Source: Eledone cirrhosa
Lineage: Eukaryota
Assembly (NCBI GenBank): GCA_964016885.1
Contig: OZ024743.1
Location: 299,026,001-299,090,000, forward strand
Direction of reading: 5' to 3'
Length of the DNA stretch: 64,000 bases
Part shown: piece after piece, positions 1-63,409 of the stretch
Numbering within the stretch: position 1 is the first letter of the stretch
How the letters are laid out: each line of letters begins with the position of its first letter
The notes under the pieces: generated by a model
Told to the model about the DNA's origin: nothing
What the model saw: only the letters and a program-made list of their open reading frames with translations
The model's database searches: none
Program-made: the position numbers and the translations under genes

Positions 1-492
1 AGAATCATCTGCAAATTGATAACAGAATTGAAACACATTTATTTTAAATATTAAAAGGTATGTAGACTAGTTAAATGTTTCTTTTTGTGTTCGTTTAAAT
101 TGAATACAAGACCGTAAGTATATACGAAAAAGGAACATAATGCGTTTTAGTAAAATGTCTTGCTTCAGTGTATACATCTTATCATACAATATTTCAATAC
201 AATTGAATATTGTCATTGTATTTCTATATAATGTATGACAGGCAACAGGGTGTTTATCTCGGTTGTGTAATGTGACTTGCTAATACTCAGCTAATTGTAT
301 CTTCGAACCATGCATGCATTAACTCTCGATAACATTGTTACAACTTATTTTGGGTTCCATTTATTATTTAACGGATCCACTTTATGCTACATTTTGAATT
401 TAAATCTCGTTGAAGGAGAATTTATCTTTGTAATAAATAAGTATAATATTACTCGAAACCTTTAAGCTATATATATATATATGTGTGTGTAT

Positions 493-541
<49 letters not shown>

Positions 542-1656
542 GAATTAAATTATATATATATATTGTATTAAATTCATGGGTATCTTAATTTTCTCTTTTC
601 AAATATATGAAAAACTCCTCGAAAACAGGTCCGTACTTTATTATATATTTGTAAACTGTCTATGTGCACGTTCCATTCCCCCCACCCCCCGTAATATTTT
701 AAGCAACTCCCCTAACACCACCTCGCACCCTTTTCCTTTGTATATAGACATTCATTGTTACTAGTGACTGTTTGATTCAAAGTTTCAGCGACATTACAGG
801 TTTATCAAACAATAGGCTTCGATAAGCTAGTAGTGTTATATAGTTTAGTTGAGGTACAAAACAAAAATGTTGTCTCGTATTAGGTATAGAGGTGATAGTG
901 CGTGTTATGAATGATATAAAAAAAGCCCATTAAGCTGTATGTTGATTCCATTATAAATACCAGAAAACGTATTTAGTGTGTCATGTTTCGAGGTGTTTAT
1001 GTATGTATGTATGTATTTTTTGTGGAGCGAGAGACTTCTAGTCTTCAAGACACCTCTCTAGGAGAAGGTCACTCTGATATAAAAACTATGACTTCGTTTG
1101 GATCCAATGATGTAGACCAATATTTCTTTTTGGGCAAATGCATTCGATGTTCAGAGAGTCGGATTGACCCGGTGCAAAGGCTTTCCTCACTTAAAAAAGT
1201 TTCAAGCACAGGCATCGCTTGTTATGTGACATTTTTTGTGCTGCATGGTATTGCTGGCCATAGGAAAGTTCTTAACAGGACTAAAACGCCACGTCATGTT
1301 TAAGTATCAAGCGATGGCATTTCTCGAAACCAAGTTGCAGCCATCATGATGTATGTATGTGTGTATGTGTGCATGTAGGTGTTGGGAAATATGGAAGATG
1401 TCTGAGGTAGCAATTATGGAGGAAGTCTTAATTCTAATAAAGACAATTAGTTCACAGTTGACATTGTTTTTAGGAATGTACTTTTTACGAGTTTGAAATC
1501 CGATAGTCTTGTCCGCTAGATATTTTGTTTATTGTTTGCTTTGTTTTCTGAGTGTATTATTTGCGTATAGGGCATTCGATGATTGCTTTGTGTTTGTTCT
1601 GAATGTGTCTGCGTTCAGTTCAGATTTGTGCATTTAACGATCCTACTTGAGTATTT

Positions 1657-1708
<52 letters not shown>

Positions 1709-1721
1709 GCACACGCACACG

Positions 1722-1753
<32 letters not shown>

Positions 1754-2020
1754 GTGTATATATGTGTGTGTATATTTAGTGTAGTTATCGATGGTGATTA
1801 GACTGGTTGGAGCAATAAGGGTGTTGTTTAAAAACACAGAGAAAACCCACTACAGGTTAACTAGTTGAAACATTCAGCTGTATGATGAAAGGCTTTGATA
1901 AACCGAGAACTTACTAGAAAAATTAAAAACAGTGTTTGCTACATTCAAAATCGTGCGACTCACACACACGCGCGCACACACATACACACACATACACCCT
2001 CCCATTTACACTTTTATATA

Positions 2021-2099
2021 CAAGGTTTCCATAAAGTCCGTGTGTCATTTAAAATACTTGTATTATTTTAAATTGCACGTGGACTTTCTGGACACTATG
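2021..2099. mobile_element. Tiny Tc1/mariner-type MITE remnant
   Basis: Imperfect ~25-bp terminal inverted repeats (caaggtttccataaagtccgtgtg / gcacgtggactttctggacactatg), flanked by TA on both sides. Confidence 0.5.
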
Positions 2100-3350
2100 T
2101 ATATAATGTATATTTTAACCGCATAGTACAGGAGAGTAGAAAAGGTTTAGAATCGGGAGGGGTGACGGATTATTTCCCTTTCATAATTGTCAATTTCTAC
2201 ACAGCTTTCTTTAAATAATACAAAAGTAGCAAACAAATATTTGTTCAGATTCAACAATTTATTCTTAACCACATGTATATATCTGCCTGGCCTTTTCAGT
2301 ACATATCTTTACAATGTTTATATTGATAGTTAATAGTATTTAAAGAATAACACTTCAACATGTATTACATTTCAGGGAAAATTTCATCGTCTGTGTGTAG
2401 CTGTTGTATTGTGTATACAATTGTCAAGTGTATGTATAGTTGTCAGAGACAATTAAATGAGACAAGCAACGGTGTAATGTGTGTTATATTATGAGGAATA
2501 TATCCCAAAGAAGATAAAGCAAAATCGACCGGATTTGAAATATGAACTTCGACGACATCAAATTCGATTGAGTATTTCATCTAGATAAGTTTGCTACTTT
2601 CGTAAACCAAGACATTTTAGCATTAATTGAATCTTGGTGTTGATATAATGTATATTGTGTTCGGTTTTATGAGATTTTAACAGCGTATTCATTTATTCTA
2701 TGGCTTGCATATACTTAACGTACAATTTGGTTATTTTTGCTGTGTATTGTATACGTTGAATTTATTGTGGTTAGTTTGTTTCTGTATTGTATACTTTGCT
2801 CTGCTAAATTATTTGAATATTGATTGGATGTTAGCATAATGAAAGTAACTTACCCGATAGTTATATCTACTTGCTAGCTTGCCAAACTGAACAAAGTGGA
2901 ATTAACAGTTTTGCCTGTAGCCATATAGAAACACCTGCAGCAGATATGACATAACCTGCTCCAGAGCTGATAGTTCAATACCTTATGCACTTGTTTTATA
3001 TTATATTGGCACAACACTTTACAAATGCCAGGAGTAGGAAATGGAATCTATTATATTTTTTTGTGTTTCCTAAGTGTATTAAAAGTGAAAATGAAATGAA
3101 TGAGTTTCTACAGTGAATGAAACCAAACTCAACGTCACAAGCCATTAGACAATTGAAATGTTATTATCCACAATTAGCATTCAGGGGTTATATTCACTAA
3201 AAGAAAAAGCGTGACACTCATGCTATAGTAGAGAGCATTAAGAATGCAGAAGAAATGGATACATTATCATTGGGGATGGAAACCTCATTACGGTTGTAAC
3301 TAGCTTGCATATATTATTGTATGATGATCACCACGTATAGTACAAATAAT

Positions 3351-3713
3351 TGTTTCTACTTTTGGCACAAGGCCAGCAAATACCCAGTGCATTACTGGTA
3401 CTTTATTTTATCGACCCCGTAAGGATGAAAGGCAAAGTCAACCTCGGCGGCATTTGAACTCAGATCGTAAAGGGACGTAACTATGCTGGAAAGCATGGCG
3501 TCCGAACCTCTACCGATACTGCCAATCCACTGCCCTTATTTATAGTACAAATAATTGTTTCTACTTTAGGCACAAGGCCAGCAATTAACCAGTGCATTAC
3601 TGGTACTTTATTTTATCGACCCCGTAAGGATGAAAGGCAAAGTCAACCTCGGCGGGATTTGAACTCAGATCGTAAAGGGACGTAACCGATACTGCCAATC
3701 CATCGCCCTTATT
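3351..3713 (-). mobile_element. Two tandem tRNA-derived SINEs (3351-3540, 3556-3713)
   Basis: Minus strand shows A-box-like tggcagtatcggt, B-box gagttcaaat(c/g)c, central gcctttcatccttacggggtcgataaa and 3' gccttgtgccaaaagtagaaac. tatagtacaaataat occurs at 3336, 3541 and 3714. Confidence 0.9.
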
Positions 3714-3992
3714 TATAGTACAAATAATGATGTATCATTCGTACTGATTCCATCGACTATAGAGAGATGAAAACAAGTACCGTATCTGTTTCATGGGGCA
3801 TGTAGTTGAATATATATTGGCCATTACACAGCTCTATAATTAGTAATTTATAATTTGGTACTATACAAAGGTTTTATGGAGAAGTAGTAGTCTTAGTTAA
3901 CTCTAGAATTTAACTCGATTTGTGTTTTCACTTATTTAGCTAAACGCATGCAAAGTTCACCATGAAACAAACATAAAAGTGGTTATAAATTT

Positions 3993-4153
3993 AATAGTTT
4001 CTGATTTAGGAACAAGGCCAGCAATTTTGTGGGGAGAGGAAAGTCAATTAAATCGACCCCAGTGCGTTACTGGCACTTTATTTTATCGATCTCGTAAGGA
4101 TGAAAATCAAATCTAACCTCGGCATGTCGTCCGGGGTTCCACTGATACTGCCT
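3993..4153 (-). mobile_element. SINE of the same family, internally deleted
   Basis: Shares aacaaggccagcaa and tttatcga..cgtaaggatgaaa motifs with the 3351 copy. Confidence 0.75.
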
Positions 4154-5007
4154 TAGAGGAAATAAATATATACTACAATTCATTTACGCTGACACTACCG
4201 TTCCTGCCGCTAAATAATATTTCTGTTTTTGTAAGGAACTATATTTACAATTGATAATCAATATAAACCTGTCCCCAACTTTATTCAACTTATATCAGCT
4301 TGATGCATGTGGCCACCATAAATACCAACACAAAAGAATATTTTAAATATTTCATTTGAAATTGTTGAGCATACATTTAATAGAGATCTATAAATATAGC
4401 AGTTGGCACATTAGTCGTTTAATTGTATTCACGGTGAGTGAATTCCCTCAAGCTAGATGAAGGATGTGACTTGTTTTTGAAATTATTATCATGTTTAGCT
4501 ATTAATCCAATATTTAAGAAAAAGCAAATATTTTAAAACAGCAACGGTTTTGGCTAAATGATAGATTTGTTTCATTGCTTTCCCCTCAAAATATTTATCA
4601 AAATATTTTATTGCATGCAGTTGACAGCACTTGCTTATTGCAAAAGCTCATTATTCTTTATTATTCATCCACTTTACATTCGATATTTTCATTCTTATAT
4701 TTCATTTTTCTTCTTCCTTTTAGCTGAAATGTGTTTTCCTTGTACCGCAATAACAATATAGTATTACGAAATGTAAACCAGCGAAATCAATTCCAATTTT
4801 GACGGTTATTTCGTTGATAGTATTTTTTAAAAACATATTAATTGAAATATATTTCAATAATTCCTTTACTTCTAAACGACAAAGAATATTCCATGAAATG
4901 TGTGAGCAAAATCCATTGTCACATATTCAGTTACTGTATGCAATTATATCGCTTCCAATAGGGAAAAGACTATTTATTAAATGCTGGATACCAATAATAA
5001 TAATAAT

Positions 5008-5190
5008 TGTTTCTAGTTTTGGCACAAGACCAGTAATTATACAGTACATTACTGGTACTTTATTTTATCGACTCCGTAAGGATGAAAGGCAAAGTTAACC
5101 TCGGCGGGGTTTGAACTCAGATCGTAAAGGGACGTAACTACGCTGGAAAGCATGTCTGACCCTCTACGGAATACTGCCAATTCACCGCCC
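5008..5190 (-). mobile_element. SINE of the same family
   Basis: Near-full copy with B-box, flanked by caataataataa on both sides. Confidence 0.85.
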
Positions 5191-5249
5191 ATCAATAATA
5201 ATAACACTAACAGATAACAATGAACAACAAATTGAAAACAACAACATAC

Positions 5250-8150
5250 CCCAGTAGTGTGGGGAGCATCACCCAGAGGTAATTTAAGAACACCACAGAT
5301 GTTTTCGACAAATCATCACCAGTCCGCAATGCACTCCCTTGTCTGTAGAGATTGTTGTCTCAAGCCGGTACGGCCCACCGGTAGCATCACAAACCAGAGA
5401 TTTCTAGAAATTGTCCATAGTCCTCTGCCCGAAAGTCCTATTTCTGTTCGACGCCTAAAAATTCCCTTGAACATCATCACTCTTGTCTACCACTAGTCCT
5501 CTAGAGAATGCTAACATGAAATATACATTGGTAGAGGGCAGTTATCGCCAGTCAACATTCCTGATGACAGGCGCTCAGTTTCTTTCTTTGATTGACTCAA
5601 GACTGCAGCTCAGTGAAAGAGACGATAGGGAATGATGTTTCTGACAAAACCTAACCATAAACGTTTACCGTTTTGGAACATCTGCAAACGACGTAACCCC
5701 AGCGCATGAATAGCCACACTATGCCGAGCCCTCAGTGCAAAAAGGTTGTTTGCAGCAGATGAATTGCTTAACCAGTAAAATGCGTCCCTTCCATTAGAAT
5801 TGAAAGAACTCACTGTACAAACTGGTGAGATGAAAACCGATGCATGGGAGGACGGTCACGTGGTAATACTTGATGGGGGGTGATGTACGCATTAGACACT
5901 TCTCTAGCCGATCGTTTAGGGATAGCTTCTTTCTGGTCTATTTCTGACTGAGACTGACTACCATGCTCGTTGCCTTGACTAAGTTCCTAGCCTCTTAAAG
6001 GTCCAGACGAAACGAAACCTCGAACCATTTAACCGGTCTGTCCTTGAAACGACCTACGATGCTGTTTAATGATATGAACTTCCATCTCTAGGTTTCAAAC
6101 AGCAAATCCAGCCTCTGAAGACGAAACCGAAACCAGTTGCCGTGAGGTCACTCTCAAAGTAAAGACGCAAGACACCATCAAAAGCTTTAGATTGATCCAA
6201 GTTGTTCAGAATACTACAGAAGCTAAGTTTACTCCTTACGCACGAAGTGAATAAAACTGGACGTGATTGCGCACATATGTGCTTTCCCGACAAAAACATC
6301 TTGATGATAAGCGTCAATGTCTTTGTTAGTACCTTGGCTGTATTTTAAACTCTGTGCTGAACAAATTTATCATCCTCAAGTTTTCAGGCCTTTTCGTTAC
6401 AGAACTGTGTCTCCTATTCCAAGCTGACTAAGAGATGTGTAGATTTTCAAGTCATTAAATTCTGGAATAGTGCGTGTGTATCGGAACTCCTGCTCTCGCT
6501 GATATCTAGTTAGAGACATGAGGTCGGTGAGTAACCGAATCCAGGGTATGAGCATTTATACATCCTACTCATATAGTTACCGTGTTGGCCAAAACAGAAT
6601 GAGAGGAATAAAGTAGGTGGGGGAGCTAATTACCATCCTGGTGCTGTTAACCATCGTGTAGGTCGACCTCTTTATTTTGGGGGCTTCATTGGGAAGTCTT
6701 TTAACATCCTGTTGGTGGCCTTTATACGTGCGATCTATGATCTTGTAGGAAGCTTTACTTCATGGTTTTATATATCTGCGCAGGCATTCTGCCTATTTTC
6801 CAAGTTTGTGGCACCTTGAATGTGTTGCTGTTGAAAGTACCCCTCCCCCGTTTCAATGTCCTCATTTTGTGCTATAAAAGACGTCAATCATTCGATCTTC
6901 TACCTCACTAGCACTAATTTCGTTGTACGAGTACTTAGTTGTCATTTTTGTGTATATGTGGGCTTGTGTTTTTGTGCAAGTTTCCTTTTTGTAATGGGTA
7001 GTGGAGTTTGTGCTAGTGTTCTGTTGATGGTGTTGGAGTTGGTGTCGTTTTCCTGTTTTCCGGAGTTGAGGCGAGACTAAAGTTCCTTTTCAAAGGCTTG
7101 TTTCTTTTTTCCTGTTCTTTGTTTTTCTGTGGCGTCGGCATTACCACCCCTCCCCAACATCCTCACCCTACCCTCTTTACTGCAAGACGAGGCGTTTTCA
7201 GTTTCTGAAAAATCCGACTAGGAGGCGCTTTGGAATGTGTGCACGTCGTGTGTGTGTGTGTGTGTGTGTGTGTTTAAAATGGTTAAAAAGAGAGAGAAAG
7301 AGAGAGAGAGAGAGATGTGTTGGGAGATTCTCGCACTGGGTTTGTTAGTATTTTTGTCTTCTGCTGTTTTGCTTTATATTAGTGGCTGTGGTGCTGTTGC
7401 TCTTGTTGTTGATGTTGGCCGTGCTGCTGCATTTGTTACATATGTCAAGTTTTTAGTGCTACTGTCACTGCTGTTGGTGTTGCTACTGTTATCGAGGATA
7501 GTGCTGTTGTTCTTCTTGTTCGCTGTTTGTGTCCGTGTTGTTAAGGTCCTCGTGTTGGTAGAAAGTTGGCACAGCGGTTCCCTGTCTTTTGTTACGGAGA
7601 GAAAATTCCTAGCTGATTGGGATCACCATATAGATAGCAGTGAAGATTTTGCCCTCAACTTTGTGATGTAGTTTAACCCATTCGACATGCGTATGAAGTC
7701 TGGTATCTTATAAAGTTTTATTGGCTTAATGTGCAGAAACAGTTCCAGCCTGATCACAGACTCGTTCTCCTGCCACATTCCGTTTAATTCCAGGAGAGTG
7801 TCGCTTCCTTCCAGGACAATGCAGCTCAGGATCCAGCTAGTGTCCAACTCCAGTGAGGTGTAATGCTCTGTAAATATGAAGGGAAAAGAAGGTCGTCGTC
7901 TCGTGACAGGGGAAGAAAAAATGTACTAGTTTTGAGGGCTTCGCTTAAAATGCATTGCTCTGCCACAAAACTTCTTTGGTCAAGCGATAATTTGAATGTT
8001 GGGCCATATATTATTAAAGCACCTGTTGACCTTAGCATGTGGAGCAGATTCTGGGGGAACTTCTTGAACGGGGGTAGCTAAACTAACCCAACGTTCCTTC
8101 CATTTTGATTAACTTGGCCGCTTGTGATAAACAGGTTTTTATTTAATATA
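5250..8150 (-). mobile_element. Decayed L1/Tx1-like LINE (ORF1 and RT remnants)
   Basis: Minus ORF 6066-6317 contains the RT motif LDQSKAFD. HALGLRRL-like post-RT segment at ~5700, degenerate zinc-knuckle near 6800, ORF1-like fragments at 7623-8038. Confidence 0.6.
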
Positions 8151-21339: not shown

Positions 21340-21690
21340 GAGAGAGCGCGGGACAGAGAGATAGAACAAGCAACCAAACAATGACATGTGAATAAACGTA
21401 TGAATAAAAACACACAAGACCCGAATAGAACGCAAGCTGCGCTCGCAGCTCACAAAAGCAAGATGGTATAGGAGAGAACAAAGGTAGTAACTGAGGAGTT
21501 CCCAGAATGTGTGACAAAAGTGCTTTGGCAATCAACAACTAAACAACCATCTGGTTATCAAACTCATCGAGCGGGAATTTATAACAAATTGAAGTGATAA
21601 TCAACTGGAGAGTGTATTTTTATTGGCAGCATGACCCTGTCAAAGTATGACTATATCTGTTTCAATACACGTTTTCAAATAAGACGTCTT
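21340..21690 (+). mobile_element. Diverged 3' end of PLE family A
   Basis: Similar to 25780-26180 (aaccatctggtt; attggcagcatgaccct; acacgttttca), with a decayed HHR at ~21490. Confidence 0.65.
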
Positions 21691-21750: not shown

Positions 21751-21921
<171 letters not shown>

Positions 21922-21937
21922 TATATATATATATTTC

Positions 21938-22514
21938 AGACTCGAAACCGATTCGGTAAAGGTAACCAAAGTGAGTAAAGTTATTTTTTAAAATTTATTT
22001 TTAAAATTTTTCTTATTTGCTAAACCTTGATTATATATGTTCTGGCTCGTTAATTTATTAACCTGCCATTGAACCACATTGGCATATGGTTGGACAATAC
22101 ATGTTTCCCTGAACGTTTTGTGTGTGTAGGGATATATATACTTTATTATTAATCTCCTCTTGGTCGAGAAAAAAAGTTGGTCGTTCTGACTGCTGCTAGT
22201 TATAATTGTAGTAAGTTGACCTCCCTGCTTTTGCTTCTATTTTTACACACGGTTCTTGAAAGAATTGCTCCCACATCATTCATTCTCATTTCGGGAACAA
22301 TTTTGAATAGCGCCAGTTCGTAATTTGAACTCGGGAATTTTATATTCTTCGAGTGAAAAGATCCTTCTGACGAGTGTTTATCTTTGCAACGGATGCCGTA
22401 TGTACTGTCCGTTTATTTTTGAGACTCGAAACCGATTCGGTAAAGGTAACCAAAGTGAGTAAAGTAAATTTTTTAAAATTTATTTTGAAACTTTTTCTTA
22501 TTTGCTAAACCTTG

Positions 22515-22518
<4 letters not shown>
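21938..22518 (+). mobile_element. Retrozyme-like non-coding unit with ~95-bp terminal direct repeat (period ~484 nt)
   Basis: agactcgaaaccgattcggtaaagg...ccttgattata at 21938 and 22422; (TA)n on both sides. Confidence 0.7.
22363..22446 (+). ncRNA. Type I hammerhead ribozyme
   Basis: ccuu CUGACGA [long imperfect stem II] GAAA CCG auu CGG UA aagg; GUA triplet. Confidence 0.75.
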
Positions 22519-22566
<48 letters not shown>

Positions 22567-22712
22567 TGTTATACTTTGGGAGGGTCATGTTGCCAATAAG
22601 AAACACACGCACCAGTTGCTTTCACTTCAATTTATTATAATACATTTATAAATTTAGGAATTTATAAATTTCCGGTTGGTTGGTTCCACAACCAGATGGT
22701 TGTTTATATATT

Positions 22713-22755
22713 GTCAAAGTTCTTTCGTCACACATTCTGTGACCTCTTCAGTGAC
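22713..22755 (-). ncRNA. Minimal HHR in PLE-A 3' repeat
   Basis: guca CUGAAGA g GUCAC..GUGAC GAAA G aa C UU ugac. Confidence 0.6.
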
Positions 22756-23050
22756 TGGGAATTCTTTTCTTTGTTTTTGTGCCTCTGCTTTGTTCTGTCC
22801 TATGGCATTTTTTTTCTGTGTGTGTGTGTTGTGTGCTCGGTCTGCGCATGCGCCACATCCGGGTGTTTGTGTGTGTTTATATTCGTTTATTTATTTGTTT
22901 ATTTACATGTTACAGGTTGATTGTTTGTTCTATGTGCGTGTGTGTTTTCATTTTGTCCTTAATTGTAAGTTGTCATGTTGCTGTTCCACTCATGTTTTCT
23001 ATTTACTTTTGGTTGTAATTCTTTTATGTTTATTGCCTCAGTTACATTTT

Positions 23051-25069
23051 TTATCTATACAGGGGGGGGGGGGGGCTTTGAAAAGGGTATGTCTTGCTAA
23101 TAAGTGTTTTTACGGAGGTACCTGGTATTTCTACTATCTTAATATTGAGTTTATATTTATCTAGGGCCCTTCTAAATTTGTAAGCTAATTCACCTCTAGG
23201 GGTTGTATCGATGAATATTACACTCTGGTATTTATTGCTATCATACCATGAGTTTATTCTATTAGCCTTATTCCTAGTTCTTTCTATTCTATTCCAAAAT
23301 GTGCTCCTATACAAGGGACAGGTCCCATTGGTGTCATTATTTACCATTTTTTTCCCATTTGGTTCTGGCTCCTCTATACACTGTGATTTTATCTCTCTGA
23401 TTGTAACCAGAGAAGTGCATACCGTGGATGAAGTGTTGTATGTGTCTCTATAGTTCTTCGGGGTTGCACATGCGGGACACGTTTCTCATCACCCGTACCA
23501 AATCCGCAATCAGTATGTTGATTTTGGTATGGTCCGAAACAGCTGAGTTTCGCTGGATCAGATATTGGAAGTCATGGGTTTGGCATAATGGGAATGGAGG
23601 ATTTGTTTTTTGTTATTAATGGTATCTAACCAGAGCTCTGTGTCTAGTACAGGTAATCGATGGTTGGGGTGTTTACTTGGGTAGTCTATAGTAACTCTAA
23701 TACTCTGGTGGATGGAGTTAGCTATTTGCTGGATGCTTTCCATTGTGTTTTTCTCTAATTCCTGACTGTTCTCTAGTGGGGGTATTTTAACTACGAATTG
23801 TATATCAGTGGGGGTATTTTAACTACGATTTGTATATCATCAACGTAACGGGAGTACATTATCAGGTTTAAGGGGTCTTCTAATTGTTCTTTAAGTTTAA
23901 GTTTAAGTCTACTGTCCCACCATACCATGAATAAGTTAGCTATGTTGCCTGCAATGCTAACACCAATGGCTGCTCCTTCCGCTTGGGCATATGTTTTTCC
24001 ATTAAATTTGAACATATATTCCTTAAGGGTTAATTTTATGCTGGCCCCCACCGCATGTGCAATCATTTTCTTTAGTTCATCGACGTTTTCGGGTGTCCGT
24101 ATGGCTCTGGTCCACCCGTTCCATCTATCTATGTGGGTTTTCTTGGCCATTGAGGTAATGGTAGGTGGTCTGCCTCTTGCTGGTCTTGTAGGGCACAGGT
24201 TGCTAAGGTCATATGTGTCTAGGTAACTATTACTATAGGTAAGTTTAAGTAGGGGTCCCAGCTCACTGGTATCAATCCCACGGAACTCAACATTGCTCTC
24301 ACTGATAATTTCTACGCATTTCTCCACAGCAAAATCCACATCAATAGATGGATACAGGGACACAACATCCATACTACCTATTATGCAGTTTTTTAGGTCC
24401 CTAGATCGGTTACCCTTGCCGATTCTGCTGAGGAGGTCCTCCGTGCTGTCACATACATCTGGGGACATTTCAATGGTGGGGGGTATGATCAGGGAGAGGA
24501 AGTAGGACAGTCTGTAGTTACTAGCAATGTTAGCTCCACAGACTGGCCGTGTTGGTGGTCCCGTGACAGGGTCACTGCCCGTTTTATGGTCTTTTCGAAG
24601 CCCATACAACGCCGGCACGTCATTCTTCCAAGCCTGTAAGTTGTTTGCAGTCCTTTTGTTGGGCTGCATTATATTCGTCCACATCACCATATGGGCATTG
24701 AGGGCTTTTTCTCTATCCTCATGCTCTTGTGGTGTTACTTCTCTTGCATTAGTGATGTGGGGTTGCATTGCCTGGATGTAGTTTAGCAGGCTTTCAACCG
24801 ACATTTTGCCAGACTTGTCTGTTGGAAAGCATGCTATCTCTCCATTACGCAAGCGCTGCATGAGCTTACGCAAGCCATTTGCAGATTTCTTCTCCCAGTT
24901 GCTGGATCTCCATTCTATGATGCTTCTTGCTATACTGTTCTATAATATTTCTAAGTTCGGATCTAGCTATACTAAATTGTGCTTCTGTTTGTTCATCTAC
25001 CTGCGACGGCAATTGCGTGCGTTTGTTAAATGGTAAAGTCGTGGCGTGGACTCGTCGCAGATCGAACAA
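23051..25069 (-). pseudogene. Penelope-like reverse transcriptase (disrupted)
   Basis: ORF 23791-24873 with TDKSGK, RPVC, SMDVVSLYPSI, QAEGAAIG and RYVDD. Thumb fragments (LPVLD) follow. A ~30-bp duplication at ~23780-23835 breaks the frame. Confidence 0.9.
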
Positions 25070-25750: not shown

Positions 25751-25949
25751 AAGGACAATATGTAAACACACACGCACATAGAACAAACAACCAACCTGTA
25801 ACATGTAAATAAACAAATAAACGAATATAAACACACACAGACTCCCAGATGTGGCGCATGCGCAGACCGAGCACCCAACACACACACAGAAACAAAATGC
25901 CGTAGGACAGAACAAAGGAGAGGCACAAAAACAAAGAAAAGAATCCCCA

Positions 25950-25992
25950 GTCACTGAAGAGGTCACAGAATGTGTGACGAAAGAACTTTGAC
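25950..25992 (+). ncRNA. Minimal HHR in PLE-A 3' repeat
   Basis: Same motif as 22713-22755. Confidence 0.6.
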
Positions 25993-26714: not shown

Positions 26715-27967
26715 CTGATTGCGGATTTGGTACGGGTGATGAGAAATGTGTCCCGCATGTGCAACCCCGAAGAACTAGAGAGACACATACAACACTTCAT
26801 CCACCGTATGCAGTTCTCTGGCTACAATCAGAGAGATAGAATCAGAGTGTATAGAGGAGCCAGAACTAAATGAGAAAAAATGGTAAATAATGACATAAAT
26901 GGGACCTGCCCCTTGTATAGGAGCAAATTTTGGAATAGAATAGAAAGAACTAGGAACAAGGCCAATAGAATAAACTCATGGTATGATAGCAATAAATACC
27001 AGAGTGTAATGTTCATCAATACAACCCCTAGAGGCGAACTAGCCTACAAATTTAGAAGGGCCCTAAATAAACATAAACTCAATATTAAGATAGTAGAAAG
27101 ACCAGGTACCTCCGTAAAAACACTTATTAGCAAGACATACCCGTTCCAAAGACCCTCATGTATAGATAAGAAATGTATAACCTGTAAAATAAGCCCCCAT
27201 ATTAACTGTAAAACTAGAAATGTAGTGTATAGCATAAGATGTACTGAAAGACAATGTAGAAGCAAAAATATAGTGTACATAGGTGAGACAGCTCGTAGTA
27301 TAGAGGAACGAATAAATGAACACTGGCGAGACCTTCAAGATAATAAAGAATCATCTGTGCTCTACCAACATGCTAAGATAGAACACAGGGGTAGATTAGA
27401 GAACATAGAAATAAAAATAGAATCCACACACAGAAAAGATGCTATGTTTAGGCAAATTACAGAGGCAGTAAGCATAAAAGAATTACAACCAAAATTAAAT
27501 AGAAAATATGAGTGGAACAGCAACATCACAACTTACAATTAAGGACAAAATGAAAACACACACACACATAGAACAAACAACCAACCAATAATAAATAAAT
27601 AAAAAAATAAAAATAAATAAATAAATAAACAAATAGATAAATGAACACAAACACACACAGACACCCGGATGTGGCGCATGCGCAAACTGAGCACACAACA
27701 CACACACAGAAACAAAATGGCGTAGGATAGAAGAAAGGAAAGGCACAGAAACAAAGAAAGGAATCCCCAGTCACTGAAGAGGTCACAGAGTGTGTGACGA
27801 AAGGACTATGACTATATATAAACAACTATCTGGTTGTGGAACCAACCAACCAGAAATTTATAAGTTTGTAGATTTGTAAATTTATAAATTTATAAATATA
27901 TAATAAATTGAAGTGAAAGCAACTGGTGCGTGTGTTTCTTATTGGCAACATGACCCTCCCAAAGTAT

Positions 27968-40459: not shown

Positions 40460-41808
40460 TGGGTTCTGTAACTAGGCACTGGAGAAAGGAGCTGCCCCGA
40501 ATCAGTGGAGGATCAGTAACATCGTCACAGTGCCAAAGAAGGGAGATCTCTCTAACACCAACAACTACAGGGGGATCTCACTGACGTCACTTGTGGCAAA
40601 GAGCCTCAGCAGGATGATTCTTAACAGGATCCAGCCCAAGATGGAGAAGAAGCTCAGGGACAACCAGAAAGGCTTCAGAGAGGGAAGATCAACCACCAGA
40701 CACACCCTGATGCTGAGGAGGATATTAGAGGGAGCTAGAGCAAAGTGCCTTCCTGCAGTCATGGTTCTCATTGATTTTAGGAAGGCCTTTGATTCTGTGG
40801 ACCGTCACTGCCTGATGAAGATGTTACAGGCTTATGGAATCCCCAAGAAGATAGTGGACCTGATATCACTGCTCTACACCAACACCAAAGCTCAAGTCAT
40901 TACACCTGAGTTCTTTGAGATACTGGCTGGAGTGCTCCGGGGAGATACATTGACTCCCTATTTTTTTATCATCGCAGTGGACTATTGTATGCGCCTTGCG
41001 CTGGAGAAACACCAGAACTCTGTCTTTACTGTAACACTCGCTCAGATCAGGAGAGTTAAGGCGAAAAAGATATCGGATGCTGAATATGCTGACGACATAG
41101 TTCTGGTGATAAACACCGTGAAGGAGGGAGAGGAGTTGATGAAGTTGGTGGAGACTGTGTCGATGAGTGTGGGGCTGAGAATGAATGAGATTAAGACGAA
41201 GTATCTGGTAGAGAATATTAAAAAGCCAGAGAAGATTACTAATTTAGGTAGGAAGCCGCTAGAATTGGTTGAGGACTTCCTGTATCTGGGTGAAAAGATT
41301 GGGAATACAGAAGATGATGTGGTCGAGAGGAGAACAAAGCCTGTGCGGCGTGCCACAGTTTGAGATCGGTGTGGAAGTCGGACTTTCGTAAGACCTGAAG
41401 ATCCGTCTCTTCATTGCTGTAGTGGAGTCTGTGGTGTTGTACGGGTCTGAAACTTGGACACTGACCAAGAAACTCACTCAGATGGTTGATGGGTGCTACA
41501 CGAGAATGCTGAGGATGGCTCTGAACATTAATCAGTATATACTGAGGATGGAGAAGTCAGAGCTGCACGGGAGCCTCCCAAACGTCAGCTCGAAAGTAGC
41601 ACAGAGGAGACTGAGGTTAGCTGGACATGCTCACCGACATCCAGAGTTGACACTACACTCAGTTCTCCCGTGGGAGCCCCTGCACGGACACACTGGAAGA
41701 GGAAGACGGAAGTTGACATATGTTGATGCCCTAAGGACAGACACGGGTCTCTTGGAGACGCAGGACATGGCAGCGATGATGAGGGACAGAGACCGCTGGA
41801 GAGAACTC
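40460..41808 (+). pseudogene. RTE/RTEX-like LINE reverse transcriptase (frameshifted)
   Basis: PKKGDLS..NYRGISL, NQKGFREGRST, IDFRKAFDSV, GVLRGDTL, EYADD, FLYLG; then VLYGSETW, RLAGH, GRGR. Confidence 0.92.
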
Positions 41809-45825: not shown

Positions 45826-46013
45826 GGAAAAAGTATGACTCCGACGGCAGAGCTCAAGCCGTTTCGACGGCTATTTCTCGATCAGAAATAGCCGTCGAAA
45901 CGGCTGGAGCTCTGCCGTCGGGGTCATACTTTTTCCTATTTCCCACTCTACTACACTAAGTATTGAGTACTCTTGTGCGTTATGGTCCATCTGGTTCCTT
46001 ACCACATTTCCTT

Positions 46014-55811: not shown

Positions 55812-57258
55812 TTAGGGAGAAGTGTTTAGACGGGGTCCGTATTTGTTAATGAAGTAAGATTCCTTGCTGATGCGCTGGGTGTGGGTGGCATTATCTTTAA
55901 ATTTGTAGAGGGGAAAGATTCTGAAGTTGGGATGATTTTGGGCGGCGCAGGTATCAATGTGTTCACTCAGTGGTATTTTCCTGTATTCCCGTATTTTAAT
56001 TTGGGATCTATGGACAGTCATGCGTTGGCGGAGGCTGTTTTTGGTCTGGCCTATGTATTGTTCTCGACAACCTGAACAAGTTAATACATATATTAAATTT
56101 TCCGATGCACATGTGAAATTGTGTTTTACTATAAAACGTTGTCCATCTTTGAAATAGAATTCCGAACCCTCTATTAGGTTGATGCAAATGCCACAGTTGG
56201 GTCTATCGCATTTTTTTTACTGTGGGTTTCGTTGTTGTGGTTGGCAGTACTTTGGCATGTGTTAAGATGTTTTTCATTGACTTGGATTGTCTTTTGCTCT
56301 TTATGATATCGTGTGTTCGTAGAATTTGGTTCATTCTATGGTCCTTTTTCAATACAGGGATGTTCTGGAGGATGGTGTCAAAAGCCTCGTTGTTGAGGGG
56401 GTTGTGTGTGGAGATGTATGGAAGAGCTTTTAGTTTTGGTTGATTTACTTTAGGGTGTCTAAGGTCCTGGGTACTGAGTTTTAGGGCACGTTGGATTCCA
56501 TTGTCAATTAGTGATGCAGGGTAGTCCCTGCCTATGAGTGTGTCCTTTAGTTCTTGTAGCCGTAAGTAGCAGATGTTTTTATTGGAGACTATAGTACAGA
56601 TTCTCTTGGCTAAGTTGTAGGGAATATTAATTTTAACGTGTCTAGGGTGGCAAGAGTTGAAGGGGAGGTATTGCTTGGAGTCTGTGGGCTTGTAGTATAT
56701 GTCTGTTTCTATGTTTTTGTTATGGATCTTAATGAGGATGTCGAGGAAGGGGAGTTGTTGATGGCTGTATTCCATCGTGAAGTTAATATTTGTGTTGAGC
56801 CCATTTATAAGGGTGTGAAATTCTTTAAGTTTTTCGATGTTTTCGTGCCAAAGGATGAAGCAGTCATCAAGATATCGCTTCCAGTTCCTTTCAATGTGTA
56901 AGTGGAGGGTGTTTCCAAATTTGTTTAGGACTTTAGTGTAGAGGGTGATTTCCAGGTATCCCATGACTAGGTTGGCATACGTAGGGGCTGTTTTCGTTCC
57001 CATAGCGGTCCCAGATTTCTGCCTGTAGGGTTTGTTATTGAAAACGAAGTAATTGTTCTCCAAGATAAATTTGAGTCCCTCTATCACGAATTCTTTTTTG
57101 ATGCGTTGTGGGAGTTCATTGTGGAAGTTATCCAGCCAGAATTGGATAGCTTCTATTCCTAGGTTGTGGGGGATGTTGGAGTATAGGTTGACTACATCGA
57201 ACGTCACTAGTAGGGTTTGTTCAGAAAGTGGCATATTAGGGAGGTGATTGAGCATATC
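55812..57258 (-). pseudogene. Penelope-like RT plus Cys motif plus GIY-YIG (5'-truncated, one frameshift in an A-run at ~56210)
   Basis: TFDVVNLYSNI, QKSGTAMGT, WKRYLDD, LPFLD, SCHP; then CGIC, NLIYVLTC..C..QYIGQT..RMTVH..E..LN. Confidence 0.93.
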
Positions 57259-57951
57259 TAAAATACGGGAATACAGGAAAATACCACTGAGTGAACACAT
57301 TGATACCTGCGCCGCCCAAAATCATCCCAACTTCAGAATCTTTCCCCTCTACAAATTTAAAGATAATGCCACCCACACCCAGCGCATCAGCAAGGAATCT
57401 TACTTCATTAACAAATACGGACCCCGTCTAAACACTTCTCCCTAAGACGAACCCACAACATACACACGTCAACATACATACCTACATCAGCACACATCTC
57501 TACCCACATATAAACACAATGACACACGTAAACACACATGCTCTATGGTGCAATACAAAAAAATATATGTGCATATATATGTATGTATATATGTATATAT
57601 ATATATATATATATGTAGTGAAAATATATATATGTGTGTGTGTGTGTGTATATATATATAGTGAATATCATTTCACACCTTTTATTGTTAAGATTGTTGA
57701 TGTTCTATTAAGAGAACCGATTTTACTGAAAAAATCGAATAATGTACACCATTTTACCAGGGGGGAAAAAAATACTGGTCCACCCACACACGCACACACA
57801 CACACACACATATATACACAAACACATACACACGCGTACATCAACATACAAAGAGACTTATACACACACACACACACACACGCACTTCTCCGTATAAGAC
57901 AAAAGCTGAAAAATATCTTTTGACCTTCGAATGACTCTGCTGTGTGTATGT

Positions 57952-61977: not shown

Positions 61978-63088
61978 TTGTATCTATACATGCACACAAT
62001 TACATATTATATCTATATATATATATATATCAAGTCTATTCAAGTACGACGGGCGATTCGCGATTGATCAGCTCAATGTTCGATCTCTATTGGATGGGTC
62101 TGACTCTAGAATCAAAAGCTCATCAGACTCACACACACACACACATACACACAAACACACACACACACACACACAGATACACACACGCACACACATAGAC
62201 ACTCACACATACATATATATATAGATTTATAAATATACATATAATATAATTTATCATTTGAACGTATGTTTTTGTCTGCACATAAGTGTGTATATATCTG
62301 GGTATCGTGATACAATTTTAATATACGCAACTAGATTGAGACATAATGCATGCATACACACATCCAACAATAGACGCACAACACATATGTATGTATGTTC
62401 TTCTGGTTTTATAATTTCACAACATTTTTCCCAATAGAGAGAGAGTCGGTTTCTAACATAGACACAAGACTCTCTCATTGGAATTTACACATGTATGCAT
62501 GTATGTATATATGTACGTCTGTGCGAATATAATCTAAATGGTTCTATGTATATATACATTATGCAATACACATACACACACATATATGTATATATATATA
62601 TATATATACACACATACACTCTTATATATATATATTTATACATGCGTTACTTATATTTTAACTTTTTCTGCCCTAGGCGAAAAACCGCATTTTAAAGCCA
62701 TATTTAGGCCCTTTTTGAGGCGTAATTTAAAGATAATCCAGTCGACTTCCTCGAAATTTGCAGTACATATTATTTAGTCCCCTCGCATTGCTGTGGACAA
62801 AGAAAAATTTCCGATTCCATTAATGGTCTCTAGGAAATTTACGAATTCGCATTGGGCATTTCATGCCATTTTCATTTTCGATATAAACGTTACTTAAACA
62901 TCGTAAGTAGCGTATAATATTTCGTTAAAAATTTGATTTATTTAACAGAGGACACAACATTGGAATCATATATGATTCCAGTTCCTCAATGAGATAACAA
63001 CACAACAAGGAGGTGAAAAAAAAGATGTATTGACAGAGAAAAACACATTTCAACAACATGTGTACCTGCCTCTCCCACACCAATTCGG

Positions 63089-63143
63089 ACTGCCTGAAGA
63101 GGTTACAGCCAATGATGGCTGTCACCGAAATGTATATAGCAGT
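63089..63143 (+). ncRNA. Minimal type I hammerhead ribozyme
   Basis: acugc CUGAAGA GGU u ACAGCCA auga UGGCUGU c ACC GAAA U GUAU A UA gcagu. Confidence 0.8.
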
Positions 63144-63409
63144 ATATCTATAATTTATAATAAACGAAGCCAAATTTTACATATTTGACTTAATTAATTT
63201 ACATTACTCCGGAGTAAACAAACCAACCTGTGTACTTCGTCGAGTGCTCCAATCTGTATACTGAGGTGTCGGAAAACAAACCAACATATACTCAATATAT
63301 ATATATATATACACATACACGCAACCTGGCGGACTGATATGTTTATAGGGTTTGCAGGAATAAAATAATTAAAGGAATGCATCCTGCCCAGCCTCCTGTC
63401 ATTTTACTT

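Follow-up and report, generated by a model that had tools for sequence, protein, structure and literature searches.

A non-coding, hammerhead-bearing repeat of Eledone cirrhosa with the insertion footprint of Penelope-like elements

How does an insertion in a TA microsatellite come to start with half of a hammerhead ribozyme motif and to carry the same half again, 484 nt further on, inside a complete one? The 64,000-nt stretch of the Eledone cirrhosa genome analyzed here (contig OZ024743.1, positions 299,026,001 to 299,090,000; the window) holds one such insertion, at positions 21938-22523. The first-pass annotation had proposed a retrozyme-type element, and this assignment stands, as the element is non-coding, bears a hammerhead and is set in (TA)n. 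The window copy belongs to a dispersed repeat family (family A) that, with a sister family (family B), makes up a new pair of families among the known metazoan retrozymes without long terminal repeats (LTRs), carrying the insertion footprint of Penelope-like elements (PLEs), rather than a new principle. We put at roughly 60% the probability that this single insertion was made by PLE enzymes through target-primed reverse transcription of an RNA longer than one unit, probably a circle.

The region contains only two occurrences of the 21-nt half-hammerhead AGACTCGAAACCGATTCGGTA (21938-21958 and 22422-22442), and the spacing of 484 nt reported at first pass is exact. Since CTGACGA is present only once in the region, the left copy represents just the 3' half of the motif and the right one the complete motif. 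The left half begins within the 3' strand of helix II, with only (TA)n upstream, and is not a complete ribozyme because it has neither the CUGANGA box nor the 5' strand of helix I ahead of it. An ungapped repeat search placed the terminal repeat at 21930-22011 versus 22414-22495 (88% over 82 nt), and BLAST matched 22422-22523 to unit positions 1-101 (21938-22038) with 96% identity over 102 columns. The whole insertion measures 1.21 units. Microsatellites flank it on both sides, as had been noted; the last bases of the 5' one (..TATATTTC) run into an A/T-rich stretch ahead of unit position 1, and the 5' end of the window copy lies in this stretch, which merges with the (TA)n and in which several other copies of the family also end. 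The non-coding character of the unit was confirmed: the longest stop-to-stop frame within the insertion has 82 codons, and across 26 family copies the longest frame varies from 63 to 106 codons, inconstant in strand and frame, with none conserved. An autonomous PLE would carry a reverse transcriptase and a GIY-YIG endonuclease in one frame; the protein of the neighboring element PLE-A gave a best E value of 0.87 against the 484-nt unit by tblastn. The window copy is most likely a dead product and not a source, given the half motif on its left and the weakened helix II on its right, where the second pair is a U.U mismatch and the apical loop is changed. The coordinates of all these features are collected in Table 1.

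Table 1. Coordinates of the window copy, its hammerhead motif and its immediate surroundings (positions in the window).
Feature	Positions	Strand	Remarks
Diverged PLE-A-like 3' end	21486-21651	+	Context; 68% to inverted 22568-22756; other side of microsatellite
(TA)n microsatellite, 5' junction	21871-21937 (also given as ~21871-21935)	.	Preceded by (CT)n, 21754-21870
One 484-nt family A unit	21938-22421	+	Position 1 = 21938; 35% G+C, non-coding
Half hammerhead at 5' end of insertion	21938-21962	+	Helix II 3' strand (AGACTC), GAAA, helix III, U-A, AAGG
Internal site S1, copy read through	22029-22038	+	GATTATATAT, unit positions 92-101; main end of the family against (TA)n
Internal site S2, copy	22140-22149	+	ACTTTATTAT, unit positions 203-212; the other fixed 3' end in the family
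Complete type-I hammerhead motif	22363-22446	+	Core letters, three helices
Helix I 5' strand CCTT	22363-22366	+	Motif reading
Core box CTGACGA	22367-22373	+	Motif reading
Helix II, long rod	22374-22427	+	Motif reading
GAAA box	22428-22431	+	Motif reading
Helix III CCG/ATT/CGG	22432-22440	+	Motif reading
U16.1 and A17	22441 and 22442	+	Motif reading; predicted cleavage between 22442/22443
Helix I 3' strand AAGG	22443-22446	+	Motif reading
Terminal repeat of unit positions 1-101	22422-22523	+	Ends at S1 (22514-22523), joined to (TA)n
(TA)n microsatellite, 3' junction = target	22524-22565	.	Sequence
PLE-A 3' untranslated region	22566-23042	-	Context; its 3' end faces the same (TA)n
Reverse transcriptase frame of PLE-A	23791-24939	-	Weak RVT_1 match
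GIY-YIG endonuclease of PLE-A with preceding CxxC-type linker	26874-27542		Frame reading

The genome searched comprises 3.0 Gb in 1,796 contigs, and the searches score the best first-look candidates only. Family A gave 2,496 such candidates, of which the 40 scored yielded 85 matches, mostly with 87-100% identity (lowest 80%). The search for further copies that the first-pass annotation had recommended thus revealed a dispersed, non-coding family of low thousands of copies. Family B was recognized in the sample of junctions described below (L078 and L084), gave 1,797 first-look candidates and shares 78% identity with family A across the full unit. Comparison of the unit by BLAST with 30 fetched loci located a fixed 3' end at about position 101, where GATTATATAT (site S1) is joined to (AT)n; in some of them the 3' end falls instead at about 212, with CTTTATTAT (site S2) joined to (AT)n, and once at 173, and the 5' ends are variable. 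With TATATAT at 95-101 of the unit and TTATTAT at 206-212, each 3' junction falls in an A/U-rich place where pairing between the RNA and a TA repeat would be possible. Exact S1-(TA)n junctions number 1,031 genome-wide (3 for the reversed-pattern control), exact matches reading through S1 number 724 (control, 0) and exact S2-(TA)n junctions 317 (control, 32). A satellite expanded by unequal crossing-over was rejected on account of the dispersed copies, the 3' ends fixed in (TA)n and the variable 5' ends. Neither did we find the tRNA-, 7SL- or 5S-derived head of a short interspersed nuclear element (SINE), no Rfam family reaching its gathering score anywhere in the window; the unit contains several T runs. 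The block most conserved between the two families covers unit positions 61-140 (21998-22077 in the window), at 90-97% identity against 78% overall in two family B units; it reaches past S1 in both directions and would be suitable as the recognition site of a reverse transcriptase.

The first 30 loci had been picked by similarity to a 1.2-unit query, which favors long copies. For this reason, an unbiased sample was taken, consisting of the first 40 S1-(TA)n places listed on contig 1, each measured with the queries of both families. Insertion lengths range from 46 to 720 nt with a median of 328 (n = 40; the value for L045, with masked N upstream, is a lower bound). While 31 of the 40 are below one unit, nine exceed 500 nt, and all nine pass from unit position 1 into position 484 of another unit; none of them continues into coding sequence. 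Only two of the 40 reach at least 655 nt, which gives room for two full motifs. An inverted partial copy abuts 14 of the insertions; among the other 26, 12 have at least 27 A+T in the 30 nt upstream and several of the last 14 end in TA repeats by eye. The 5' ends are truncated to varying extents, in a series that extends past the unit boundary into a further unit. The layout of slightly more than one unit, which had been read at first pass as the signature of a circular RNA, is real in the window copy but represents a single point of this series, most members of which are shorter than the unit. Loci of 1.2-2.7 units are present in the genome. Two complete hammerheads are the mark of an active retrozyme according to Li, Clavereau & Pollet 2026 (10.64898/2026.07.22.740005); the window copy, with a single complete motif beside a half one, falls short of this, and some loci reach it, such as L016/L017, where three motifs have intact core letters.

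In 100 loci we counted 27 distinct head-to-head pairs, of which 20 join an arm ending at S1 to one ending at S2 (~101/~212), one is 111/212, one S1/S1, none S2/S2 and five are of other kinds. Over all arms, 96 3' ends are at S1, 28 at S2 and 13 elsewhere, and random pairing of these ends would give about 35% S1/S2 pairs. The gaps at the junction between arms are mostly of -8 to +3 nt. PLEs are described by Craig et al. 2021 (PMC8557442) with pseudo-LTRs, an inverted and 5'-truncated copy alongside, a tail on just one end and a bias for (TA)n, and family A has each counterpart: a microsatellite target, a pseudo-LTR, an inverted 5'-truncated partner and a tail at one end. One locus (L029, 552-1980) connects the two kinds of element physically. 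There, a copy resembling PLE-C, a second coding PLE of this genome, lies on the minus strand (552-1486), is cut off in its endonuclease domain and abuts the 5' end of a plus-strand retrozyme arm, with neither filler nor TA repeat at this head-to-head junction, an arrangement suggestive of one event that used both RNAs. A tentative and, on balance, doubtful extension is that every two-armed insertion is one event, with a PLE complex on both nicked (TA)n strands making cDNA from S1 and S2, 111 nt apart, of one small circular hammerhead RNA, and that the hammerhead is a distinct type-I subclass whose helix II rod of 46-54 nt goes unseen by current covariance models. A full-length PLE-A with an inverted 2.3-kb partner was found in L043 (reverse complement, 83-7125); one of its arms ends short (..GTTTCTTA) and the tail that precedes the (TA)n in the other is longer by about 94 nt, a single case that resembles the S1/S2 rule of the retrozyme.

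In the window motif, the core elements follow the order CUGANGA, GAAA and U-H with helix I open, which is the order of a type-I hammerhead. The hammerhead reading is drawn from the core letters, the three helices and covariation, and not from Rfam. Helix II is a rod of 46-54 nt: next to the core come six base pairs, then an internal loop, a stem of 5-6 bp and a short apical stem closed by a tetraloop, GUAA or GCAU in families A and B, respectively. Helix III has 3-4 pairs. Judged from this model, the internal loop after six base pairs of helix II and the opening of helix I after 4-5 bp may stand at the right distance for a loop 1/loop 2 contact. We aligned the motif of 76 copies, 40 of family A and 36 of family B. 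The 17-pair structure leaves 92.9% of cells paired, compared with 14-56% when the 3' partners are slid. Changes on both sides were seen at one pair of helix I (15-100; UA in 36 copies, CG in 34) and at three of helix II: 25-83 (GC 39, AU 26, GU 9), 27-81 (GC 64, UA 4) and 29-79 (CG 33, UG 30, UA 9). Cells changed on both sides amount to 73 against 27.9±9.8 after shuffling, a value that none of 500 shuffles reached, with the caveat that two of the inner-stem changes are located at CpG sites. Of 112 columns, 33 differ between the majority sequences of the two families. None of the 13 core columns is among them, the six paired columns that differ all keep or create a pair, and 27 of the 67 unpaired non-core columns have changed. 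The core is intact in 32/40 copies of family A and 29/36 of family B.

These observations can be assembled into the following route. Loci that hold two complete hammerheads would give rise to transcripts; these would self-cleave after GUA (22442/22443 in the window copy), and ligation of the unit-length product would close a circle. The endonuclease of a PLE would nick (TA)n, and the TA 3' end so created could anneal to UAUAUAU (S1) or UUAUUAU (S2) inside the RNA and prime cDNA. Synthesis would then stop early or run beyond one unit. The 5' end would be closed in one of two ways: through A/T microhomology, as in the window copy, or by junction with a further cDNA started from the opposite strand. 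Self-cleavage, a circle and target-primed tandem cDNA have been proposed in this same order by Cervera & de la Pena 2020 (PMC7229834) and Li et al. 2026 (10.64898/2026.07.22.740005). For family A, we infer transcription, self-cleavage and circular RNA. Nine of the 40 sampled insertions need a template longer than one unit, which could be supplied alike by a circle, by a multimeric transcript or through template jumping. The circle is argued indirectly, from 5' truncation alongside super-unit copies without visible long arrays, from the internal priming sites and from the conserved block across S1.

Several results weigh against copying by PLE enzymes from a circular hammerhead RNA, and they concern in turn the template, the ribozyme and the partner. 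Rare variants were compared between passes in 47 multi-pass insertions (7,565 overlapped positions): 28 are shared and 289 private, so there is no positive sign of one RNA read round repeatedly, and there is no A-to-G excess of the kind that RNA editing would leave. Among the first 100 read-through junctions listed there are no long arrays, only six same-strand pairs about 484 nt apart and no triples. The best-placed rival retains the PLE-dependent, non-coding element and gives it a linear template, provided by read-through of a locus of 1.x-2.x units or by template jumping of the reverse transcriptase, with the hammerhead trimming transcripts or serving some other role. We regard it as unlikely, but it is the alternative to be taken most seriously. 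The insertion data fit it too, the loci of 1.2-2.7 units are possible sources, and the prevalence of private variants is what would be expected if the passes came from different units, although mutation after insertion predicts the same. A difficulty, by inference only, is that 5' truncation to less than one unit (31/40) would shrink the templates in each generation, and super-unit insertions nevertheless make up 9/40 of the sample with no long source arrays seen at those 100 junctions. The internal priming sites and the conserved block across S1, this last in two family B units, fit an RNA without a fixed 3' end.

As for the ribozyme, Rfam gave no match at gathering score in the whole 64-kb window. 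With the threshold relaxed to E ≤ 10, the 1 kb around the motif gave 11 matches and 136 nt of a well-formed family B copy gave two, none of them a hammerhead, and in the whole window there was no hammerhead among the best 150 of 284 rows; the matches at relaxed thresholds are only false microRNAs driven by microsatellites. The Rfam hammerhead models likely miss the motif because of the length of its helix II. A generic hammerhead pattern scan of the window missed it too, because the pattern allowed gaps of 38 nt at most. Helix I has no more than 4 bp (family A) or 5 bp (family B). Covariation is itself open to the objection that the copies fall into two related clades with few independent events and that the structure was derived from the same sequences. 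Folding had been suggested as a check in the first-pass annotation: the whole monomer has a z score of only -1.57, and the motif region folded without constraint is no better than shuffles (z of +0.37 and +0.06). When constrained to the hammerhead, a family B copy folds at -23.4 kcal/mol, about equal to its minimum free energy (MFE) of -23.5, an intact family A copy at -18.4 against -21.2 (2.8 above the MFE) and the window copy at -14.9 against -20.9 (6.0 above). Thermodynamic scores were set aside as evidence in either direction. In the MFE fold of the cleaved monomer, AAGGU just after the cleavage site (21959-21963) pairs with ACCUU just before S1 (22024-22028), and this pairing, which takes the place of the helix I strand, is a possible alternative conformation. 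In a second rival, the hammerhead-like motif would be a relic or a chance resemblance without catalysis and the family a short non-coding repeat mobilized by PLEs. The silence of Rfam, the short helix I, the fold that is not favored in family A and the broken cores (8/40 copies in family A, 7/36 in family B) all speak for it. We nevertheless consider it quite improbable, since the core has been kept whole between families that have diverged at so many other columns, every change in a paired column preserves pairing, with four pairs changed on both sides, and a minority of broken cores among old copies is expected under neutral decay.

The partner was sought among two coding PLEs, PLE-A and PLE-C, which share 65% protein identity over 778 residues. 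Both have a reverse transcriptase along with a GIY-YIG domain at the C terminus, so autonomous PLEs coexist with the retrozyme, and both have a 3' end in (TA)n. PLE-A gave 18,932 first-look candidates (108 scored), with open frames of up to 1,282 codons and a pseudo-LTR of 470 nt; PLE-C gave 23,312 (150 scored), with frames of up to 1,167 codons, 1,119 in the fetched copy. Their CX2-5CxxC linker is of the Neptune/Nematis type as Craig et al. 2021 (PMC8557442) describe it, an assignment by linker only. Short-word blastn, relaxed scoring and local alignment with shuffled controls detected no sequence shared between the unit and either element, the sole match being TTTCTTATTGGCAAC, 15 nt in the tail (p ~0.05), which leaves PLE-A and PLE-C as candidate partners. 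In addition, only one PLE-retrozyme chimera, the one in L029, was present in the 100 loci fetched (about 95 distinct). We built a covariance model of the long-helix-II hammerhead (R1), which in the window plus 33 PLE loci (202 kb) recovered nothing besides the window copy, at 122.1 bits, and the half motif on its left, at 21.8 bits. The idea that the window copy is a 5'-truncated PLE, its interior being the pseudo-LTR or untranslated part of some longer coding element of this kind, raised at first pass as the counter-case, can draw on the coding PLE 44 nt from the window copy and on published descriptions of PLE copies that are 5' truncated and have hammerheads in their pseudo-LTRs (Craig 2021, PMC8557442; Li 2026, 10.64898/2026.07.22.740005), but it is very improbable, as all nine insertions over 500 nt continue into another unit, none of the 13 in 100 family loci with PLE-like coding matches has them contiguous with the retrozyme arm on the same strand, the alignments found nothing common to the unit and PLE-A or PLE-C, and R1 finds no such hammerhead in the 33 PLE loci, although a rare parent of few copies might escape genome searches in which only the best candidates are scored.

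Compared with the PLEs, then, the retrozyme is alike in its insertion into (TA)n, pseudo-LTR redundancy, variable 5' end and adjacent inverted 5'-truncated copy, in having two alternative 3' ends, the longer on one arm, and in the hammerhead placed shortly upstream of the 3' junction. It differs from PLE-A and PLE-C in lacking a frame for reverse transcriptase or endonuclease and any sequence similarity to them, and in the hammerhead itself, which in those two is minimal (6-bp helix II, 1-bp helix III, loop GAAC) and here has a long helix II and a helix III of 3-4 bp. With the metazoan non-LTR retrozymes, as they are portrayed in the literature (PMC7229834; 10.64898/2026.07.22.740005), it shares a non-coding unit of a few hundred nucleotides, a type-I hammerhead, low G+C (35%), head-to-tail units and coexistence with PLEs. 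The unit of 484 nt is above the range of 150-450 nt given by Cervera (PMC7229834) and within that of 51-972 bp given by Li (10.64898/2026.07.22.740005). Unlike what those accounts report, family A consists mostly of dispersed insertions of less than a unit to 1.5 units and not of arrays, although monomer-type dispersed copies have been described by Li, Clavereau & Pollet 2026 (10.64898/2026.07.22.740005). Also different are the 46-54-nt rod of helix II missed by the Rfam models, the helix III of 3-4 pairs and the circles, which in our case are putative. Plant LTR retrozymes (Cervera et al. 2016, PMC4918200) are likewise non-autonomous, hammerhead-bearing and thought to pass through circular RNA. 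Their hammerheads are described as type III and as lying in long terminal repeats; they also have a primer binding site and are probably mobilized by Gypsy elements (Cervera & de la Pena 2020, PMC7229834). None of these features was seen in family A.

Two further systems offer partial parallels. In the twin priming of LINE-1 (a long interspersed nuclear element), two cDNAs are primed on both strands of one target break, giving inverted arms joined at microhomology; the retrozyme arms, unlike these, have part of their sequence in common, and each begins at one of two fixed sites inside the unit that are 111 nt apart. In the partnerships between SINEs and LINEs, a non-coding RNA makes use of enzymes that an autonomous element provides; our unit differs in having no demonstrable 3' tail common to its candidate partners. 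Animal retrozymes and their suspected dependence on PLEs were already in print. What the two families add is a hammerhead with a long helix II, invisible to Rfam, whose core and helices are kept across two diverged families, and, in family A, a footprint that can be counted: priming sites fixed at two A/U-rich stretches inside the unit, 5' truncation in a series that extends across the unit boundary, and the S1/S2 combination in 20/27 inverted pairs. This footprint makes target-primed copying of an RNA of more than unit length, possibly circular, by PLE enzymes testable at the bench. If the distinct subclass and the two-site priming were both true, such retrozymes would be under-counted in animal genomes, and their loci would be a natural read-out of how PLE reverse transcription is primed.

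The window copy lies in (TA)n between two 3' ends of PLE-A type, which face each other and account for the large inverted repeat around the copy. The 3' untranslated region of PLE-A, of about 480 nt, is present in five copies in the window. Within this 3' region there is a minimal motif resembling a type-I hammerhead, at 22713-22757 (-) and 25948-25992 (+), composed of CUGAAGA, a 6-bp helix II, GAAA and a 1-bp helix III with the loop GAAC, and without an Rfam match at gathering score; PLE-C has a similar one. The generic pattern scan mentioned above returned a single match in the window (63094-63144; 0.26 expected by chance). It falls in a third hammerhead-like motif at 63087-63150 (+), with ACUGC, CUGAAGA, a helix II of nine positions, GAAA, a short helix III and GCAGU, that probably belongs to another PLE-type element. 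Further reverse transcriptase frames at 40476-41363 (+) and 56203-57321 (-), with RVT_1 E values of 2e-29 and 2e-6, mark other retroelements. Lastly, the segment 45500-49200 has TA-rich, hairpin-like stretches every ~1.3 kb, with identical false microRNA matches at 45830, 47119 and 48452, which suggests a tandem repeat of ~1.3 kb.

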